Positions 1,845 to 50,582 of a stretch of DNA of 64,000 nt are shown here, piece by piece. This DNA is from a phage. The notes under the pieces are model-generated. The model did not search any database and was not told the origin of the DNA. It saw nothing but the letters and a program-made list of their open reading frames with translations. Position 1 is the first letter of the stretch; each line of letters opens with the position of its first letter. Location of the stretch: the sequence record NC_101838.1; one strand, 5' to 3'. The translations under genes were made by a program, and so were the position numbers.

Positions 1845-2609
1845 TTGAAATTTATCTACAAAGAACACTACCACAAAGGTGTTGTGTGGAGTCTATTTGA
1901 CGGGTCTGGTGGTGCAGTCATTGACTGGGCAAAAGCTGGGTACCTGTGCCTGTGCTTTAATGCAGAAGGTGCTGATCACGGCAGTTATGCAGAGGTTATA
2001 ACCGATCATCCCAACATTCACTATGTGGATTATTGGATTGACCCATGGTTCCCTCAGGAAACTTTTTGCATGTACCCAGCTCCAGACTTTATTCTTGCAT
2101 TTCCTCCGTGCACGCATTTAGCGGTATCAGGTGCTGCACATTTTAAGAAAAAGCTGGCTAAGGACCCCATGATCCAAATTAATGCTGTAAAGGATGCTCG
2201 GGTTGCGGAAGAGCTGGGAGAGATTTACGATTGCCCGTGGCATGTAGAGAATCCTGTGGGTGTTATGTCCACACTGTGGCGTAAACCTGATTACCGTTTT
2301 CATCCTTCTGACTATGGTGGGTATTTACCGGAGGATGATGTAAACCCTTGGTTTCCTGAATTTATAGCTCCACGTGATGCCTATCCAAAAATAACTTGCG
2401 GCTGGATAGGTAATGGATTTATAATCCCGCCCACAAAACCTGTCCCGCAAATAGTTGACGCGGTTAGCGGGTATTCCATGCAACACGCCAAGCTGGGTGG
2501 GAAGAGTGCAAGAACGAAGATGATCCGAAGCCTCACACCACGTGGCTGGGCAAAAGCTGTATTCTTAGCAAACGAGCCTGTAGTAAGGAGCAGAATTAAT
2601 GGGAAGTAA
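1845..2609 (+). CDS. DNA cytosine-C5 methyltransferase-like protein (short form)
   Basis: Motifs LFDGSGG (motif I-like), FPPC (PC motif), ENPVG (ENV-like); no ATG, probable TTG start after AGGAG RBS. Confidence 0.45.
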   Translation: MKFIYKEHYHKGVVWSLFDGSGGAVIDWAKAGYLCLCFNAEGADHGSYAEVITDHPNIHYVDYWIDPWFPQETFCMYPAPDFILAFPPCTHLAVSGAAHFKKKLAKDPMIQINAVKDARVAEELGEIYDCPWHVENPVGVMSTLWRKPDYRFHPSDYGGYLPEDDVNPWFPEFIAPRDAYPKITCGWIGNGFIIPPTKPVPQIVDAVSGYSMQHAKLGGKSARTKMIRSLTPRGWAKAVFLANEPVVRSRINGK

Positions 2610-4677
2610 ATTTATGGCATCTGCATACAACCGTTTCGGTGAGCCAAACCCGAAAGCAACTAAGTATAAAAGCGGGGGAAGTGTGAAACGAGACTATCGT
2701 GATGAAAAAGAAGTTGAAACTGTAGAGACTGTTTTAGAAAATACTAAAATTGTCCCTGTCCCACAACAAAATATCGGTCTGATGGCTGCACAATATTTTG
2801 GTGTGCGATCAGCATTGTCCCAAGAAGACGGTGTGACAGTCACTGCAACATATTTCCCATATTACGACCGCTACGGAAATCTGTCCGGTTTCAAAAAGCG
2901 CGACTGGACGATTCCTAAAGAGCAAAGGGGCCATTTCTCCGTTGTTGGCATAGTAAAGGCTAACTCTCAGATGTTTGGTCAAAAGCTGTGTGCATCTTCC
3001 AACAACCGTAAGCAGATTAACGTTTGTGAGGGAGAAGGTGATGTTATTGCAGCATGGCAGGCTGCATATCAGATACAAGTAAAAGGGATTCTCACCAACG
3101 CTAAAGCCCCGGCAAAGGTGAAGCAGTGGGCTAAAGAGGTCCAGGACGGGATCGACGCAGTTATCAACGGTGGTGATCTGGCAGGAAAACCCTGCCTGCC
3201 TTTTGTTGGAATTAACTGTGGATGTGCAAACGCAGTAGATACTTTTGCAAACAATGAGAAGTTTATCCGCAGCTATGGAACAGTTGTGCTGGCAATGGAT
3301 AACGATGCAGCTAACGAGGTAGAGAAGCAAAAACACGTCATTAAAGGTGTTGAGGCCACGCACAATATCGCAGCATTTTTGATGGCTGATAACGTTTACC
3401 ACGTAGAATACCCTGGTGAAGTAAATGACCCTGACGGGGTAAAAGATATCCGTGACATGCTGAAGGCTAAAAAGCTGGAAGATATTGTCAACATGTTCCG
3501 GCACCCTGTTAAATATGTGCCTGATGCTGTGTCGGATTTAGAAGACTTCTCTATCGAGTCTTTGCGGAAAAAGACTTCCAACGGGGTAGATATCAGCGCA
3601 GAGTTCCCAAAACTGCAAAAAATGCTAAAAGGCTTGCACAAAGGGACACTCGTAATGCTTACAGGGCCATCAGGGGGCGGTAAAACAACTGTAGCTAAAA
3701 AACTGGAACATTGTATTGCAAGATACCTAATGGACCCGACATGCCCGAAGGCTGATGACTATGAAGAGGATGATCGTCTATGTATGATCCATCTTGAGGA
3801 GGACCCAGAGGAAGCAATTAACTCCTTGTATGCAAACCAGTTAGGGTTTGATGTTAAAGAGTTTGTTGAAGATCCTAGCCAGTTTTTAACTGATCAAGAA
3901 CACGCAGAGATTCACCAATCATGGGCAAAAGCTGGAAAAATCAAAGTGTTCAAACATTTCGGATCTATTCCGGTGGACGAGTTGATTACCAAGCTTAAGC
4001 AAATGGTTTGCCTGTACCATTGCCGTTATATTGTGCTGGATCACCTGTCCATGGTAATTTCAGGGCTTAATGTTAAGGATGAGCGAAAAGAACTGGACAT
4101 GGCTATGACTCAGCTGGCTGCGTTTTGTAAGCAGTTTAACGTGTTTATCTTGGTGATCGCTCACCTCAAACGTACAGAGATTGTGCCTCCTAAGGACAAG
4201 GATGGTAACCCGTTACCTTTCTGGTATCCTGTGCGAAAAGAGAATTTGCGAGGATCGGCGGGGCTTGAACAGTTGAGTTGGGTAGTCATAGGTGTCGAGG
4301 CCGAAGAAATGGTGGATCGTTCTCGTGGACGTGTCCGTCTGGTAGGTCTTAAAAACCGTCCAGCAAAAACTCTAGGTATTGCTGACACTTTGGTTATGGA
4401 CCCGCACACAGGTAAGTTCCATGATGCCAGTAATTGGTACTGGGACAAAGAAATGCAAATGTTTACAGACGGAGAAGGTGGGGAGGTTGTTTGGAGACCT
4501 CAGGCTATGTTTGAGGATCAGGAGCATGCAGTTGTAGAAACACCTATGGGCAAGGTTGTGGCTGATAAGGTTGTAACTCCTACTGTTAAGCCTGTTGACA
4601 CGCAGGAAGACCTCCAGTACGATGATCCATCCTCTGACCCGGTCCCTGGTTTTGAGGATGATGAAACGCCTTTTTAA
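2599..4677 (+). CDS. DNA primase/helicase fusion (toprim primase + DnaB-like helicase)
   Basis: Toprim motifs CEGEGD and MDNDAAN; Walker A GPSGGGKTT; Walker B IVLDHL; acidic C-terminal tail EDDETPF. Confidence 0.85.
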   Translation: MGSKFMASAYNRFGEPNPKATKYKSGGSVKRDYRDEKEVETVETVLENTKIVPVPQQNIGLMAAQYFGVRSALSQEDGVTVTATYFPYYDRYGNLSGFKKRDWTIPKEQRGHFSVVGIVKANSQMFGQKLCASSNNRKQINVCEGEGDVIAAWQAAYQIQVKGILTNAKAPAKVKQWAKEVQDGIDAVINGGDLAGKPCLPFVGINCGCANAVDTFANNEKFIRSYGTVVLAMDNDAANEVEKQKHVIKGVEATHNIAAFLMADNVYHVEYPGEVNDPDGVKDIRDMLKAKKLEDIVNMFRHPVKYVPDAVSDLEDFSIESLRKKTSNGVDISAEFPKLQKMLKGLHKGTLVMLTGPSGGGKTTVAKKLEHCIARYLMDPTCPKADDYEEDDRLCMIHLEEDPEEAINSLYANQLGFDVKEFVEDPSQFLTDQEHAEIHQSWAKAGKIKVFKHFGSIPVDELITKLKQMVCLYHCRYIVLDHLSMVISGLNVKDERKELDMAMTQLAAFCKQFNVFILVIAHLKRTEIVPPKDKDGNPLPFWYPVRKENLRGSAGLEQLSWVVIGVEAEEMVDRSRGRVRLVGLKNRPAKTLGIADTLVMDPHTGKFHDASNWYWDKEMQMFTDGEGGEVVWRPQAMFEDQEHAVVETPMGKVVADKVVTPTVKPVDTQEDLQYDDPSSDPVPGFEDDETPF

Positions 4678-43681: not shown

Positions 43682-44032
43682 TTACTGCAACAGTTTTTCA
43701 ATAGCCGCTTCCATGCTGCTTGCAACAGCCTGAACTCGGATATTCATCTCTTCTTGGTGGATCAGCTCCTTAAGCTCTTTAATGGTAAATTCTTTAGAGA
43801 AACCTTCCACCATAATCTTGTGCAAGGCTTCTTGCGTGTCTACTTGCAAGAACTTTTCCAGTTTGTTGGCAGAGGCTTCTAAATCAGCCCGAATACGAGG
43901 GTCATCTGTGCGATTCAGCATTAGGCGTAAGCCATCAAGATTAGTAGAAATAGCATCTGCATGTTGAGTAACTAACCGTGGCAAAATGAGATCTACAAAC
44001 TTATTAGCCAAATCGATACGTTCTTGTGTCAC
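43682..44032 (-). CDS. hypothetical protein
   Basis: ORF (GTG start in track). Confidence 0.45.
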   Translation of the reverse strand: MTQERIDLANKFVDLILPRLVTQHADAISTNLDGLRLMLNRTDDPRIRADLEASANKLEKFLQVDTQEALHKIMVEGFSKEFTIKELKELIHQEEMNIRVQAVASSMEAAIEKLLQ

Positions 44033-44204
44033 TGTTGCACCCCCTCTTCATCTTCATGATGTTTCTTTTCACGCTTGTGTTTTTTCTTAAGCTCAAGCGC
44101 AATCTCTTTCTTGTACGCCTTCTTCAAGGCTTTTTTAGCCATTTGGCACCTCCTCTGCTTTCATTACGACAATTATAACCGACTTAACAAAGCTTTGTCA
44201 ACGA

Positions 44205-44678
44205 TTAGTCAACCTGAACCCAACCATCTGCTACCTTTTTAAACATTCTTTGGTTATCACTGCCTCTAAAGGGTTTTTTGGTGGGGTTATCTTTTTCGTA
44301 CTTACCGTCCATAATGTAATCAACACTATCTTTAATGTAATCGGGGACTTCTTCAAACAAATACCCTGTGTACACCCAGATAGTTTTTGTGTTGCCGAAG
44401 TGTTCACGGATAGCGCGAATGATCGAGTACATACCATCAATATTGTAAGGCGCTAAAGGTTCGCCACCGCATAATGTAACGCCAGTAATGTGTTTCGGCT
44501 TTATAGAGTGAAGTATACTCTCAATAGTGTCATTTGTTAACGGTTCCCCTTTAGCTGGTGACCAAACACTTTTGTTTTGGCAACCGACGCAGTGATGTGG
44601 GCAACCAGAACAGAACACCGTTGTCCTAATGCCTGGGCCGTCAACCATGCTACACTCTATAATATTAACAACATTCAT
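44205..44678 (-). CDS. nrdG: anaerobic ribonucleotide reductase activating protein NrdG (radical SAM)
   Basis: VDGPGIRTTVFCSGCPHHCVGCQN: CxxxCxxC cluster typical of NrdG. Confidence 0.8.
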   Translation of the reverse strand: MNVVNIIECSMVDGPGIRTTVFCSGCPHHCVGCQNKSVWSPAKGEPLTNDTIESILHSIKPKHITGVTLCGGEPLAPYNIDGMYSIIRAIREHFGNTKTIWVYTGYLFEEVPDYIKDSVDYIMDGKYEKDNPTKKPFRGSDNQRMFKKVADGWVQVD

Positions 44679-44911
44679 TCCTTATCCTCTTTTAGGTAAG
44701 GATATTCAGGCCCACAATAAGCTCTATCCAAGAAAACAGCTTCTTCCCCTCTGGAATCAGTAGATCTATAATACCCATCACCATGGTAACTAACGAACCA
44801 GTGGCACCCATCATCGCTTTCTACTGTTGTGGCTCTGTCCGAATGAAAGATAATTTCGTAATCCTTACCGAATGTAAACCATCTGTTAGCTTTTACACAG
44901 ACACCTATCAT
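44675..44911 (-). CDS. hypothetical protein
   Basis: ORF. Confidence 0.5.
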   Translation of the reverse strand: MIGVCVKANRWFTFGKDYEIIFHSDRATTVESDDGCHWFVSYHGDGYYRSTDSRGEEAVFLDRAYCGPEYPYLKEDKE

Positions 44912-45231
44912 AAGGAACCTCTCTTCTGTGATGTGCTTCTATTCAAGATAAACCTATAAAAGTCCATTTGATGAAGCCGTATAACTTTTTATACTTACGC
45001 TTCAGTGCTAACAATTTTATCTTGATTTTCTTGATAGATTTCCGCATTTCGACCCCTTATGCTTATAAGTACTCCGCATCGCATTCAGGGCAATGCCAAA
45101 TAAAATCGTCCAGTGCCTTGCACCAACGAAGATTGCAACGACAACCACACTTGCAAATTTTATAAATACCTGATGACATACTGCACCTCCTTAGTTAATA
45201 GCATGTTTAAGATATGCATATCTTTCTACAA

Positions 45232-46164
45232 TCATTTACCACAAATCTTCTTGTATACCTCTTCTACCGTGTCAAACACTTCAGGCCTGTAGTAGAAAAA
45301 CTCAGTGCTACCGTCAAATTTTACAGGAAAGTTTATTTTATACTTGCTCAAGGCCTTATGCACAGATTTTTCTAAATCTACCATGTTTTGAGTTGATCCG
45401 CTCCATGTTTTTACTACGTGAAGAGTGTGGACACCTGCGCCAGATTTACGAGCACTGTTAAGCACCTCATTTTTCCTCCTGTGCATTTTAACGCATACAC
45501 CGATTTTCATAAGTGTTGGCACTTCTAAGTCATCAACCATAATGTAGAGTTTACCGTACTCATGAGATAAGAATCCATTTTGTGCGCATTTACAGCAGCC
45601 ACGACCACTTTTTAGGTTATTAGGTTTAGCAGACCACTTATACCCACAAATTTTGCACCTACATTGCACTTTTGTGTTATCATTGGCAATTTTCTCTAAT
45701 ATTTCTATGTCTGGGTTGGCTTTGTGGATAATTGCAGCGTGCTCCTTATGGGTTAACGCTTGACTTTGCCCACGTCTTAAGTCATAGCACTCTGGGCAGC
45801 CGTTTCTTTGGTATAAGTGGTTTTCAGGGTATTGTTCAAACACACCGTGTTCAGGGCAAACAATTTTTACAGGCGTTCTCATGTTCGCATATTTGACTAA
45901 TGAGTAATCGTACTTGTCCCCATGAACAGCCATAGCCTCTTTTATGAACTCTTCAGTGTTCTTTTTCGCTGACCCACCACACCTTGGACAACCATGATTC
46001 TTGAAAGCATGTGCCACAGGGGTTTGCCAGAACTCACCGTGCTCAGGACAAATTATACACACAGGTGTCTTGTTGTTTTTATACTCCACTTTGAAGTAAT
46101 CATATTTGTCACCATGTATAGTCTGAGCTTTTTCTATAAACTCTTCGGTTGTTAGTCTTCTCAT
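45232..46164 (-). CDS. free-standing homing-endonuclease-like protein (duplicated zinc-binding module plus T5orf172-like domain)
   Basis: Two repeats of HGDKYDY...CPEHG...GCP(R/E)C; C-terminal KIGVC...GSTEFF resembles T5orf172-type domain; own promoter. Confidence 0.55.
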   Translation of the reverse strand: MRRLTTEEFIEKAQTIHGDKYDYFKVEYKNNKTPVCIICPEHGEFWQTPVAHAFKNHGCPRCGGSAKKNTEEFIKEAMAVHGDKYDYSLVKYANMRTPVKIVCPEHGVFEQYPENHLYQRNGCPECYDLRRGQSQALTHKEHAAIIHKANPDIEILEKIANDNTKVQCRCKICGYKWSAKPNNLKSGRGCCKCAQNGFLSHEYGKLYIMVDDLEVPTLMKIGVCVKMHRRKNEVLNSARKSGAGVHTLHVVKTWSGSTQNMVDLEKSVHKALSKYKINFPVKFDGSTEFFYYRPEVFDTVEEVYKKICGK

Positions 46165-46236
46165 TACCAGACCAGACCCTTCCGCTATTCACTTTATATT
46201 GCATACTATAGAAAAGAGGAATAGAAGTCAATAAAA

Positions 46237-46275
46237 ACAAAAAAAAAAATGAGAGCATCCTTGCTCTCCACCTCT
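46237..46275 (-). terminator. rho-independent terminator after nrdD (minus strand)
   Basis: GAGAGCAAGGATGCTCTC hairpin followed on minus strand by a long T-run. Confidence 0.6.
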
Positions 46276-46279
46276 TTCC

Positions 46280-47557
46280 TTATTTACTCAACGGACAACA
46301 GTCTACATTCCCAACATGTTTAACACGTTCGATAACCTCTGCTTGTTTACCTGTGTTATACGGCCTACTGTTCGGGCTGGAGAGATAGCCAGACACTCTT
46401 CGGATCACTGAGATATATTGTTCATCGTGGCATCCGCACGCAGGGCAGCAGAACCCTTTAGCTGTTGCACTGAACTCACCAGAGAAACCACACTTGAGAC
46501 ATTTATCCACAGGTTGGTTAATACCAAAATACATAATGTGTTTATACCCGAAGTCAACAAGAGCCTCTAAAGCATCAAGGTTGTTTTTCAGGTTAGGTGT
46601 CTCTACGTATCCGATGTTGCCACCGGAGGAGATCATAGCAAAACCTTCCTCATACTCCCACTTATCAAAAGGAGAGCTATTGATCCATACTGGCTGATGG
46701 AAACTGTTGGTGAGATATTCATGCTCGTGCTTTAACACTTCTGGATATTCACGATCCAGACAGGTTGCAGCTTTATAGCATAGACTCTCAGAAGGAGTGC
46801 CGTACAAGCTAAATGCTAGTCTACTTTCCTTCTTGTATCGCTCACAAGCATCTCTCATGTGCTGAAGGATTCCAAGAGCTAAAGCCTTGTCACCTTCTCT
46901 GCCCAAAATCTGACAGGTTTCATACACACCAATGTACCCAATGCTGATGGAAGCGTACCCGTCATAGAAGAGTTTATCAATACTTTCTTCAGGATCCAGG
47001 CGAGCAAGAGCGCCTTCACACCACATGATGGGGTTCTGCCCTGCCTTTGTTCCTTTTAGACGGTTAACCCTTACAAGGTGAGCCTCGTATGCAAGATCCA
47101 AGTATTCGTCAAGAACTGCAAAGAAATCAACACCTTCCGTCTTAGCTTTTGCCGCAATCATTGGCAGGTTAAGGCTAACAACGCCTAAGTTAAATCTGCC
47201 AAGGTATTTCTCCTCGCCTGTTTCCAAGTCATTGTATTTGCTAAGAAAACTCCGGCAACCCATGCTCGTTACTTTGCCATCTGTCGAGCCTGTCACTTTT
47301 CTATTTAGTGGTACAGATACGAAGTCAGGATAGATACGTTCTGCACAGCATTCCAGAGCTAATCGTTTCAAATCATAGTTAGGATCTCCAGGGTTCATGT
47401 TGACACCCTCTTCTAGGAAGAACAGCACTTTAGGGAACACAGGTGTGATCCGTTCTTCACCAAGACCCATTTTGTGGACTTTCAAGTAATTTTTGGTAAT
47501 CATTCTACCAAAGACCGAGGTATCCAGTCCTAAACTTAATGTGATGAATGGAGTCTG
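46280..47557 (-). CDS. nrdD: anaerobic ribonucleoside-triphosphate reductase NrdD, exon 2
   Basis: Begins QTPFITLS, continuing exon 1; CCPACGCH zinc site; glycyl-radical motif RRVSGY near C-terminus. Confidence 0.8.
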   Translation of the reverse strand, partial: QTPFITLSLGLDTSVFGRMITKNYLKVHKMGLGEERITPVFPKVLFFLEEGVNMNPGDPNYDLKRLALECCAERIYPDFVSVPLNRKVTGSTDGKVTSMGCRSFLSKYNDLETGEEKYLGRFNLGVVSLNLPMIAAKAKTEGVDFFAVLDEYLDLAYEAHLVRVNRLKGTKAGQNPIMWCEGALARLDPEESIDKLFYDGYASISIGYIGVYETCQILGREGDKALALGILQHMRDACERYKKESRLAFSLYGTPSESLCYKAATCLDREYPEVLKHEHEYLTNSFHQPVWINSSPFDKWEYEEGFAMISSGGNIGYVETPNLKNNLDALEALVDFGYKHIMYFGINQPVDKCLKCGFSGEFSATAKGFCCPACGCHDEQYISVIRRVSGYLSSPNSRPYNTGKQAEVIERVKHVGNVDCCPLSK

Positions 47558-48354
47558 CTGTCTCCTCCCTGTGTTTCCACAGGGCCAGACTATCTCTTAC
47601 TCTACTTCAATAAGATAATAACCCTTTATTGTGAGATGCTTACCTTCGGCATTTCCTTCGATAGCCCTATGAACGTTACCTACGTTCAAATTTAAGGCTT
47701 TTGCACAGGCATAGAGTGAAGGATATTCACCCACCAAGGTTTTCCCTTTGTATGCCTGCACTTTCCTATAGCACTTACCTGGACAAAGTCCTGTTCGGAA
47801 AGCATGTCTCTTATTATCTTCCGGCAAAACCCACTCTAGGTTAGACGGATGATCATTCAATGTATTGCCATCTTTATGATTCACTTCCCAGTTTTCAGGG
47901 TCTTCTGGGACATCCGGCAAACAATACAAGGCAACAATCCTTGAGGTTTGGATTCGAATCTTTTTACCTTTGTGGTTGAAAGAGTACATATAACGGCGTT
48001 TAACATGCTTGTTACCTTTTCCATAACCTCCCCACAATATTGGGTGTAGCATTCCACGTTTCCCGTATACGTTTCCAACCTCATCAATCACATAGTTTGA
48101 TTCTTCACCATTAAGAATGATCTTTTTCATAGAGCCTCTCCATTTCGAAGTTAGTATTTCAACTAACCCCTACACTACTTGGTTCAGAAATGTTTGTCAA
48201 GCATCTCTGCCTTTCGTTAGTCGTTACAACCGTTCCAACTCCTGTAAGAACTAGTCACGGGATTGGCATAGCTTTCGCCTTAGCGTTCCCCGTTAGCCGG
48301 ATTTACCGACCCCTCTTATGAGGTTAGGAGAGTTTTACAACGGCCAGTTTGTTA
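47558..48354 (-). mobile_element. group I intron interrupting nrdD
   Basis: In-frame stop right after exon 1; conserved NrdD sequence resumes at 47557; core-like elements ACGGGGAAC and CAATCCCGTG; exon 1 ends in U, intron ends in G. Confidence 0.7.
47597..48130 (-). CDS. HNH homing endonuclease (intron-encoded)
   Basis: EVNHKDGNTLNDHPSNLEWV HNH motif; GGAGAGG RBS inside intron. Confidence 0.8.
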   Translation of the reverse strand: MKKIILNGEESNYVIDEVGNVYGKRGMLHPILWGGYGKGNKHVKRRYMYSFNHKGKKIRIQTSRIVALYCLPDVPEDPENWEVNHKDGNTLNDHPSNLEWVLPEDNKRHAFRTGLCPGKCYRKVQAYKGKTLVGEYPSLYACAKALNLNVGNVHRAIEGNAEGKHLTIKGYYLIEVE

Positions 48355-49215
48355 ACCGTTGACAGAAGTTAACGTATTGATTTGATAGAGCAAAGTCTGC
48401 ATGCTGTCAAATACGTCTTTATCTGTCATTTGCATTGCAACAGTCTCAGCATCTGGCAACCAATGTTCCTGGCAAAATTTAAGGTTCTTCTCATAGGTCG
48501 CTTCAGCATACTGTGCCAGATAATGATCAATATGGCTCATAGTCTGACCCCCATATTGAGCACTAGCTACTGCACTAGAGATTTGGCTAAGGATTGTTGT
48601 TGCAACCCCTATTGACTTAGGCTTACTGACATGGGCGTTACCAATGTTGAATCCGTTTTCCAACATATCTGGATAATTTACCAAACAACAGTTTGTTAAC
48701 GGACTGATCAAGTAGTCAAGATCATGCACATGGATGAAGCCTCTATTGTGCTCTTCTGAGACACGGTCTGGCAGGATCTGTGTTGATGCAAGGTGTTTGC
48801 TAAGAATGCCTGCAAGCAGGTCACGATGAGTGTGTACATGATTGGTAGGCTTATTTGCGTTTTCTTTTGTAAATTCATCACAAGTGCGATCCAAGAAGCC
48901 ACTAATATCTGCAAGCAGTTTTCCACCTGCCTCTCTGTTATTATCTCTTGTCTGCCTATACTGGATGTATTCTCTGGCTGCACATTTTAAACCCATATCC
49001 ATAAGAGCGTCTTCAACAAGGATATGGATATTTTTTACAGAGATCGTGCACTGGTCGGTTGGTAGATTGTTAGCAACAACTTCATTAACCGCGCAGGCGA
49101 TCCGGTAAGCTTCTTCTTCAGTATGTCCAGACTCAAGTAAGGCGGACTCTGCCGCCTTGATCACCTTAATTCCGTTATAGACCTCTTCTCTACCGTCCCG
49201 TTTTACAACTTTCAC
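48355..49215 (-). CDS. nrdD: anaerobic ribonucleoside-triphosphate reductase NrdD, exon 1
   Basis: ATP-cone start MKVVKRDGREE; NrdD blocks GFIHVHDLDY, TNCCLV, MLENGFNIGNA, PKSIGVAT, QYGG. Confidence 0.85.
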
Positions 49216-49490
49216 TTTTTCTCTCCAAAACCATTCTTAACAAAAGAGATGAAATCGTCGGCACCGCCTATATGGACACTTTCAAGATTACTTTCTAAGA
49301 AGATCTGCGGCAACGTTCTGGGTACGATTGGACTGCACTTCTCAATAAGCTCTTCTTTTGTGTAACCCTCGCCAAGTGTCTTATATACAAAAGGCAGACC
49401 TTTACTGACTGCAAATTCTTTTGCTCTTACACAATGTGGGCAGTTATCTTTACCGTAAATAATAAAGAAAAAAGATTTTTCACAGCTCAT
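49212..49490 (-). CDS. glutaredoxin-like protein
   Basis: CPHC active site in glutaredoxin-like context. Confidence 0.75.
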   Translation of the reverse strand: MSCEKSFFFIIYGKDNCPHCVRAKEFAVSKGLPFVYKTLGEGYTKEELIEKCSPIVPRTLPQIFLESNLESVHIGGADDFISFVKNGFGEKK

Positions 49491-49493
49491 GTA

Positions 49494-50582
49494 TTAAAAC
49501 TCCCAAATTTCTTCTTCAGCGTCATTAACAGTTGTGTTGACGCGGTAGTCAGTGTTCGACATTTCTTGGTTCGCCGTCTGTTGCAATGAAGGTTTCATCC
49601 ACACCTGCATAAACGGTAGAGGGTCCTTTGTTGGCGGCACAAAGTCTTTGTCGATGCCGTAGTAATCATAAATCGGTGAGCAGTTATAGTCAACCCATTC
49701 TTTAAGCAACGGTGAGTTAAGACCTATAATCGCTCTTCCTTCGCTGAAAATATAGTCACTCCAACCGTACTCTTTGGTTCGTACTTCATCAAGAATCTCT
49801 TTTAACTCCCCCTTTATCTCAAGGAAGCTTTTCTCCCATGCGGGATCGTTAAGCAAGATATCAATGATGGCAAAATCACCTTTCGAATGTAGCATTTCGT
49901 CAAGCATGATTTTTTGAACAAGCTGCGCCACCTGAACAAAAATACCCTGTTCAGCTACTGCGAAAGTGCATGCAAAACTTGCAATAAACTCAATACTTTC
50001 CAGGGCTAAAAGTGCAAAAAGCGCTCTAAGAATGCATTTCCGCACAATATCTTCTTCAACACTAGAAGGATCCAGGCGGTATTTTGCACCAATAACCTCA
50101 AGCTCTTGCATGTATTTGACAATAACGCCGGATCTGCTCAGAACGTTTTGGTTTTCCTGAATCTCTTCTATAATCTCACGGGCATTGGGGAGGCATTGTC
50201 TAACAATCTCTGAGTAAGTTAGTGCGTGAAGAACTTCAATCTCTGACTGTTTCATCAATAGAGTGAAAAGCTCACTATTAGTGATGAATGGTGAAAAGAG
50301 GCAGATGATCGATCTTGCCGCAACGCTATCAGCCTCCCATTGCCACATCAAGGTCTGCACCATCACGTCATAAGTTGACTTTGAGCATGTTACAAAATCT
50401 GAAATAGATTGCGACAAATCCACTTCATCCTCTGCCCAATCTTGCTCTTTTTGTTTTTTGTATAGTTCAAACAGTTGTGGATATTTTTTGTTGATAGAGT
50501 CGTACATACCCATTTGCTGTCCCAGAAACAGCGGATAGTCACCAGTTTTATGAGCGGTGTTCTCAGCATTAAATACAGCCAT
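49494..50582 (-). CDS. nrdB: ribonucleotide reductase class I small subunit
   Basis: Di-iron ligand ExxH motifs; acidic C-terminal tail EEEIWEF. Confidence 0.85.
   Translation of the reverse strand: MAVFNAENTAHKTGDYPLFLGQQMGMYDSINKKYPQLFELYKKQKEQDWAEDEVDLSQSISDFVTCSKSTYDVMVQTLMWQWEADSVAARSIICLFSPFITNSELFTLLMKQSEIEVLHALTYSEIVRQCLPNAREIIEEIQENQNVLSRSGVIVKYMQELEVIGAKYRLDPSSVEEDIVRKCILRALFALLALESIEFIASFACTFAVAEQGIFVQVAQLVQKIMLDEMLHSKGDFAIIDILLNDPAWEKSFLEIKGELKEILDEVRTKEYGWSDYIFSEGRAIIGLNSPLLKEWVDYNCSPIYDYYGIDKDFVPPTKDPLPFMQVWMKPSLQQTANQEMSNTDYRVNTTVNDAEEEIWEF

Follow-up and report, generated by a model that had tools for sequence, protein, structure and literature searches.

What is the gene that separates nrdD from nrdG in this phage? 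The 64,000-nucleotide stretch of phage DNA studied here (sequence record NC_101838.1; hereafter the window) comes from a Vequintavirus, that is, an rV5-like phage: 122 phage records share at least 90% identity with its ribonucleotide reductase locus, and all of them are rV5-like. On the minus strand, an open reading frame (ORF) with an ATG start at positions 45232-46164 encodes 310 amino acids (aa). An initial annotation had taken this ORF for a homing-endonuclease-like gene inserted between nrdD and nrdG. The ORF is real and its position was correctly given, except that nrdG (44205-44678) does not adjoin it: two small ORFs, one of 38 aa and one of 78 aa (44675-44911), intervene. The gene is flanked by the nrdD stop codon (46280-46282) and the 38-aa ORF, and no gene, intron or intein is interrupted by it. 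With sequence on both of its sides it forms an apparently mobile cassette, and we refer to the version in the window as allele A. The features of the cassette and of its immediate flank are as follows.

46280-46454, minus strand: 3' end of nrdD with a putative donor-type haplotype, apparently co-transferred as the left arm of the cassette; the first difference from slur16, FFH2 and rV5 is at 46454
46233-46268, minus strand: intrinsic terminator after nrdD (GAGAGCA-AGGA-TGCTCTC and a T run), part of the cassette
46203-46231, minus strand: sigma-70-like promoter TTGACT-17-TAGTAT (9/12 match), carried by the cassette
45232-46164, minus strand: putative free-standing homing endonuclease gene of the T5orf172 family, allele A (ORF with Pfam and PHROG matches)
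45976-46152, minus strand: zinc-finger module 1, DUF723 type (HGDKYDY...CPEHG...GCPRC), aa 5-63 (Pfam DUF723)
45784-45960, minus strand: zinc-finger module 2, DUF723 type, aa 69-127 (Pfam and self-comparison of the modules)
45580-45753, minus strand: zinc-finger module 3, CapR/DUF4379 type (CRCKICG...GCCKC), about aa 138-195 (Pfam)
45241-45558, minus strand: T5orf172 nuclease domain (GIY-YIG superfamily), aa 203-308, with Y207, K220-I-G222, R230, E265, H269 and E288
45192-45231, minus strand: 3' untranslated end of the cassette with the hairpin or palindrome AAGATATGCATATCTT (45209-45224)
45063-45179, minus strand: resident Cys-rich 38-aa ORF in the flank outside the cassette, annotated in A51.2, slur16 and others

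The encoded protein combines DNA-binding modules with a nuclease domain, and each of its Pfam matches (T5orf172, DUF723 twice, CapR/DUF4379) exceeds the curated cut-off. The two tandem zinc-binding modules that had been noticed earlier are both confirmed as DUF723 modules, and a third, CapR/DUF4379-like, had been overlooked. Modules 1 and 2 are identical at 33 of 59 residues (56%), and the DUF723 profile matches with an E value of 2.4e-13 (50.2 bits versus a cut-off of 20.9; best stretch aa 86-126). In the homolog alignment the module 1 cysteines C39, C59 and C62 are invariant, as are C103 and C126 of module 2, in which C123 is nearly so; module 1 is predicted with a pLDDT of 84-90. Module 3, a treble-clef, matches CapR (E 2.2e-10) and DUF4379 (E 7.5e-10) over about aa 150-195, and a profile of the homologs matches the solved DUF4379 zinc-ribbon chain 6yxx_E2. 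In the CapR zinc-finger domain, DNA binding requires the conserved cysteines (PMC8096241).

The T5orf172-like region that had been suspected at the C-terminus is borne out by the Pfam profile search (PF10544), which aligns aa 207-307 with profile positions 4-100 of 101 (E 6.5e-8, 33.4 bits versus a cut-off of 20), so that want of nuclease homology is no objection to the proposal. The residues Y207 (in GKLYIM), K220, G222, R230, E265, H269 and E288 (in GSTEFF) are invariant among 21 homologs. T5orf172 is a subfamily of the GIY-YIG nucleases, and its member Odn of phage ICP1 shows nuclease activity that depends on a conserved Glu (PMC8263062). The domain is modeled as the alpha/beta fold of the GIY-YIG nucleases; the values listed for the fold comparison are 7.2 and 7.0 for SLX1, 6.8 for At-HIGLE, 5.0 for the I-TevI catalytic domain, and 4.6 each for EF2693 and the AtGRXS16 N-domain. 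No similarity to solved GIY-YIG enzymes was found at the sequence level. The first-strand Tyr, helix-1 Arg and distal Glu of the family's catalytic positions are present as Y207, R230 and E288, an equivalence to I-TevI or Odn residues that follows the order of the motifs and not a residue-level superposition. The whole protein also matches PHROG 681 'endonuclease' (E 3.8e-65) and no NCBIfam model, and there is no paralog of the gene elsewhere within the 64-kb window.

How is the gene distributed among the rV5-like phages? The junction occurs in three states, the counts of which are approximate.

Allele A, at nucleotide identity of at least 98.5%: 18 records
Another allele with a related nuclease domain, at 64-76% aa identity: 8 records (ECML-10, JEP1, Mangalyan, phiWec189, WalterGehring, nom, SophiaRose and O157 typing phage 14)
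No T5orf172 gene: about 96 records

The ORF is thus not universal at this position (18 of roughly 122 records), as its description as an insertion had implied. In slur16, FFH2 and Gotham the site is empty: 176 bp extend from the nrdD stop codon to nrdG and hold a native TTGACA-17-TATTAT promoter and the 38-aa ORF, whose alignment is continuous across empty and occupied sites. The junctions of rV5, Phage 203 and phita32 contain small ORFs and no nuclease gene. Presence or absence at a fixed site, with an intact empty counterpart, is the pattern expected of a homing gene. Some GenBank records already label the element or its alleles 'T5 ORF172 domain containing', 'putative homing endonuclease' or 'putative GIY-YIG nuclease family protein'. 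We note that about 20 'Campylobacter phage' records (MG065644 and MG065646, our L011 and L012, and others) are UNVERIFIED, unannotated rV5-like genomes that are 95-99% identical to E. coli Vequintavirus phages, and their host label is doubtful.

Where does the inserted unit begin and end? On the left, the window and slur16, FFH2 and rV5 show no differences from 46514 to 46455, and from 46454 to the nrdD stop codon about 30% of positions differ. This tract, the last ~175 nucleotides (nt) of nrdD, has ~70% identity to most relatives, versus about 95-100% upstream; across the whole collection, a 154-nt stretch of it has 60-80% identity in 105 records and at least 95% in 19. At the protein level, the allele-A NrdD tail reads VGNVDCCPLSK in place of YGSC[GS]C, in 8 of 8 carriers and in none of the 11 other phages examined. 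On the right, the junction at 45191/45192 (...TTAAACATGCTATTAACTA / AGGAGGTGCAG) is identical in every T5orf172 allele examined and falls directly ahead of AGGAGG, the ribosome-binding site for the 38-aa ORF. The sharp left edge, the divergent tract and the common right junction delimit the mobile unit, as judged from these alignments, to the 1263 bp of 45192-46454. It is larger than the ORF and comprises the donor-type nrdD 3' end, the terminator, the promoter, the ORF and a short 3' end with the hairpin AAGATATGCATATCTT. The interval first assigned to the insertion (45232-46275) does contain the ORF and has to be extended at both ends. The non-A alleles of WalterGehring, Mangalyan, ECML-10, phiWec189 and JEP1 keep the resident nrdD tail, the -35 box and the hairpin TTGACAAAAGCCACAAGGATGTGGCA; they start directly after TTGACAAAAGCCACAAGGATGTGGCA and replace only ~22 bp of the empty site.

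Several observations indicate that the cassette has moved. Compared with the window, seven other carriers have 99.1-100% identity in the ORF and 98.9-100% in the nrdD tract, whereas their flanks reach only 92-98%. Over the 1 kb of nrdD that lies just upstream of the tract, it is non-carriers that carriers most resemble (9 differences between CM1 and slur16, 8 between navn and phita32, and 21 between D1 and ECML-10), while two carriers can differ at up to 48 positions. The genomes that carry the cassette differ, likewise, in the number of their nrdD introns (zero, one or two) and in the presence or absence of the 78-aa ORF. These comparisons show that the cassette's genealogy is decoupled from that of its flanks. 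Since the tract at 46280-46454 accompanies the gene in all eight carriers, the locus displays both the co-conversion of flanking sequence and the decoupled genealogy that are expected of a homing gene. There are also traces of loss. In Gotham, which has an empty site, and in JEP1, which has a different allele, only the distal part of the A-type nrdD tract is left, with switches at ~46388 and ~46346, and tract identity is similarly intermediate in 16 records; we read such partial tracts as likely footprints of the loss of allele A, or of its replacement, by recombination. Finally, two of the nine carrier copies examined are broken and seven are intact. CM1 has a +1 frameshift at nt 794 by which E288 is lost, a single-base change that could be a sequencing error, and PMBT16 has an 11-nt deletion at codon 12. 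Such degenerate copies indicate that the gene is dispensable to the phage.

The origin of allele A is suggested by two metagenome-assembled genomes, L021 (141 kb) and L024 (135 kb), whose homologs of the protein have 76% and 59% identity to it; the two genomes themselves show only about 70-75% identity to the window throughout the region. Both are collinear with the window: an NrdD tail ending in VGNVDCCPLSR or VGNVDCCPLNR is followed by a hairpin and T run, a TTGACT box, the T5orf172 gene and then nrdG. Because of this common layout, the best explanation of allele A is that it was imported from a divergent Vequintavirus-like lineage, with the left recombination endpoint inside nrdD. L021 is the best donor candidate and has only about 75-85% identity across the cassette, so the true donor is unsampled.

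The terminator and promoter of the cassette were said to bracket the gene. Both sites exist, and both are upstream (5') of the ORF, so that there is no bracketing. The terminator, with a G+C-rich 7-bp stem (46268-46251) followed by 11 T, is a good intrinsic terminator; it is present in every allele-A carrier examined as well as in L021 and L024, and is absent from empty sites. The promoter match taken alone is no more than chance would give, since a scan of the region finds nine sites scoring 9/12 versus 5.7 +/- 1.9 expected. The site is nevertheless supported because TTGACT and the layout are kept in the two distant relatives L021 and L024. It stands in the place of the native TTGACA-17-TATTAT promoter of empty sites. 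The cassette promoter probably drives the nuclease gene and perhaps also the 38-aa ORF and nrdG downstream: having replaced the resident promoter, the cassette is likely to be the present source of their transcription.

We note a number of further signals around the junction. In the native promoter of cassette-free phages (positions 1305-1377 of the slur16 locus L001, and equivalents), the spacer that separates the -35 and -10 elements contains a 6-bp inverted repeat, GCCACA-AGGA-TGTGGC, and the 3' edge of this hairpin is the exact insertion point of every non-A allele. The AGGA loop is common to this hairpin and to the allele-A terminator. The 16-bp palindrome at 45209-45224 is perfect and lies directly past the nuclease stop codon; in other alleles its stem has only G-U-compatible changes (phiWec189 TGTCTT, JEP1 TATTTT) and its loop is variable, a hint that an RNA hairpin is conserved in the interval that separates the nuclease gene from the ORFs downstream. 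Immediately downstream of nrdG, a perfect 12/12 sigma-70 consensus, TTGACA-18-TATAAT (44172-44201, minus strand), corresponds in position to the annotated P118 upstream of ORF118 of phage rV5.

At least six T5orf172 alleles are found at the same junction. Their nuclease domain is highly conserved and their zinc-finger arrays differ.

Allele A (window): 310 aa, three zinc-finger modules
WalterGehring allele: 330 aa, three zinc-finger modules
phiWec189 allele: 333 aa, three modules, all HGDxYDY/DUF723-like by alignment inspection
Mangalyan allele: 386 aa, four zinc-finger modules
ECML-10 allele: 375 aa, one DUF723-like and four CapR-like modules by inspection
JEP1 allele: 311 aa

The series is an instance, at a single site, of the 'beads on a string' module shuffling that has already been proposed for this family. 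The ECML-10 allele (positions 1958-3085 of its locus, L005) is without annotation in its record, as are the nrdG and nrdD genes of that phage. The tblastn search with the nuclease domain by which the other alleles were found also returned two lambdoid temperate coliphages, mEp013 (PP180002.1) and mEp021 (MH706966.1), whose domains have 67-68% protein identity to that of the window. They are as close as the other Vequintavirus alleles, which suggests that the nuclease module may have been exchanged between unrelated phage groups.

The view of this locus as a hotspot for selfish nucleases holds up well: in addition to the T5orf172 alleles that compete at the junction, nrdD has an intron with an HNH endonuclease ORF, and some relatives have a second intron.

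47559-48355, minus strand: nrdD intron with an HNH homing endonuclease ORF (47597-48130; Pfam HNH_3), with boundaries that are precise relative to the uninterrupted nrdD of A51.2

The intron is 797 bp long and is precisely absent from A51.2 and I29; its ORF is HNH_3 or I-HmuI-like. At gathering thresholds, Rfam gave no match in 44000-49500, an interval that includes the intron. CM1 has an intron without an annotated ORF at the same position, and at another position in nrdD an additional, ORF-bearing intron occurs in VB-EcoM-WM, navn, phita32 and JEP1; this second ORF is annotated as an HNH homing endonuclease in VB-EcoM-WM and JEP1. On the other side of the junction, nrdG exists as two very different alleles (~25% alignable, at ~82% identity) among phages that are otherwise ~95-99% identical. 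The window type of nrdG is accompanied by a 388-bp insert in which the 78-aa ORF lies, and the distance from the start of the 38-aa ORF to that of nrdG is 501 nt with the insert versus 113 nt without it. Positions 44205-45062 of the window look like a second imported cassette, with a diverged flank and with no nuclease gene inside.

How might the element spread? From the sequence comparisons above, we consider allele A likely to be an active or recently active homing endonuclease gene that is free-standing and belongs, within the GIY-YIG superfamily, to the T5orf172 branch. Its nuclease homology and its sporadic occurrence among relatives support the homing-endonuclease proposal of the initial annotation, in which cleavage itself is inferred. 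We propose that the three N-terminal zinc-finger modules (DUF723, DUF723 and CapR-like) jointly read a long DNA site, and that the C-terminal GIY-YIG-type domain cuts near the bound site. When a carrier and a cassette-free rV5-like phage co-infect a cell, the enzyme would cut the nrdD-nrdG junction of the latter, and repair by recombination, with the carrier genome as template, would copy in the gene together with adjacent nrdD sequence. We infer that the target lies, in cassette-free genomes, in the nrdD 3' end or the promoter region, a stretch that carriers have in replaced or split form, and the diverged nrdD tract would protect carriers from self-cleavage.

A number of points weigh against this proposal. 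For this protein and its close homologs, cleavage, target and homing are deduced from sequence comparisons, and in the literature consulted homing by T5orf172 genes in general is likewise a deduction (PMC10448857). Ordinary homologous recombination of a neutral or useful cassette could in principle have produced the observed pattern with no nuclease drive. The record counts are approximate because several of the 'Campylobacter phage' carriers are flagged UNVERIFIED and some records are near-duplicates. Moreover, the nrdD tract is simply explained by foreign origin, with no need of an immunity polymorphism. We considered the diverged tract as a product of selection for cleavage immunity and rejected this, since L021 and L024 are equally diverged and collinear and foreign origin suffices; for this reason we make no claim of immunity.

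What else could the gene be? It could be a weapon, that is, a site-specific nuclease that cuts rival phages or satellites, or excludes the markers of co-infecting relatives, in a cassette that is kept because it benefits the carrier. Odn, the only T5orf172 protein of demonstrated activity, is such a weapon (PMC8263062), the cassette promoter precedes nrdG and so is wired into the expression of the host phage, and related nuclease domains occur in the lambdoid phages mEp013 and mEp021. We regard this as improbable, however, because the zinc-finger modules are typical of putative homing genes, unlike the replication-initiator domain of Odn, and because one fixed site with multiple alleles, an empty counterpart and frameshifted copies is the expected life cycle of a selfish element. 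In addition, no PADLOC defence-system model matches the protein at E <= 0.01, and it is not counted as a defence component on that basis. A gene with a CapR-homology module could also have been domesticated as a non-cutting DNA-binding regulator of the nrdD-nrdG region, like CapR, a repressor derived from such genes (PMC8096241), or like I-TevI in its repressor mode, and the insertion of the non-A alleles exactly at the -10 element of the resident promoter would suit such a role. This is very improbable in our judgment. Among the alleles no part of the protein is better conserved than the nuclease domain, in which every candidate catalytic residue is invariant, whereas the similarity of CapR to the ICP1 T5orf172 genes is confined to their N-terminal DNA-binding part (PMC8096241). 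The gene is, moreover, missing from about 96 of the roughly 122 relatives.

The homologs at the same position in L021 and L024 could, in turn, be taken to mean that the gene is ancestral, an accessory gene inherited vertically and lost many times rather than mobile. We find this explanation scarcely credible, since carriers share the cassette at 99-100% identity even though their flanks diverge by up to ~5% and cluster with different non-carriers, the tract is ~30% diverged from resident nrdD with a knife-edge boundary that argues for recent import, and empty sites hold an intact native promoter and not deletion scars. Returning to the homing endonuclease gene that we favor, a bolder extension is possible though on balance unlikely. 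The junction would be an arena in which at least six alleles, with three to five reordered DUF723/CapR modules, compete for one ~22-bp point, and allele A would have gained by importing a foreign nrdD 3' end and promoter that make its carriers uncuttable by itself and by its rivals. If this is true, the allele series and its matched targets would yield a module-by-module code of zinc-finger DNA recognition, and such a code would be a basis for a new programmable nuclease scaffold.

The existence of such an element here is biologically expected rather than surprising, and its value lies mainly in offering a well-defined experimental system. The family is known mostly from Vibrio phages and by inference, and this locus provides it with an uncommonly clear-cut test case, in phages of E. 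coli that are easy to handle: it has an exact empty site, sharp boundaries, close carriers and non-carriers that can be crossed, module-swapped alleles, and visible decay and replacement. There are practical consequences as well. Vequintavirus phylogeny and typing should leave aside the nrdD-nrdG interval and the final ~175 nt of nrdD, and the 'hypothetical protein' annotations of the nuclease gene can be replaced.

Finally, how does the element compare with known systems? In I-TevI and in the free-standing GIY-YIG Seg proteins of T-even phages, the nuclease domain is N-terminal; here it is C-terminal, so that the domain order is reversed, and the DNA-binding modules differ. Like ICP1 Odn (Gp88), the protein has a nuclease domain of the T5orf172 family with the conserved Arg and Glu retained, the Glu being needed for cleavage by Odn, but Odn has a RepA_N domain and targets a satellite replication origin, whereas this protein has zinc fingers and behaves as a site-bound selfish gene (PMC8263062). 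Module 3 matches the CapR homology domain of PLE CapR; in contrast to that repressor, which corresponds to the N-terminal part only, the protein keeps an intact and conserved nuclease domain (PMC8096241). The type of element and its association with ribonucleotide reductase (RNR) genes are already known, since putative homing genes that join a T5orf172 domain to repeated CapR/DUF723/DUF4379 modules, among them ICP1 gp174 and gp165, were described by Barth, Dunham and Seed (2023), who reported RNR genes in 33% of the T5orf172 gene neighborhoods surveyed, and found modules shuffled between genes (PMC10448857). The gene studied here resembles theirs in its N-terminal zinc-finger repeats, its C-terminal T5orf172 domain, its free-standing position beside ribonucleotide reductase genes, and the shuffling of DNA-binding modules among alleles with a common nuclease domain (PMC10448857). 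It differs in its setting, as Vequintavirus and nrdD go unmentioned in that paper (PMC10448857), and in that at least six alleles occupy one defined point, one of which carries a foreign nrdD 3' end, a terminator and a promoter.

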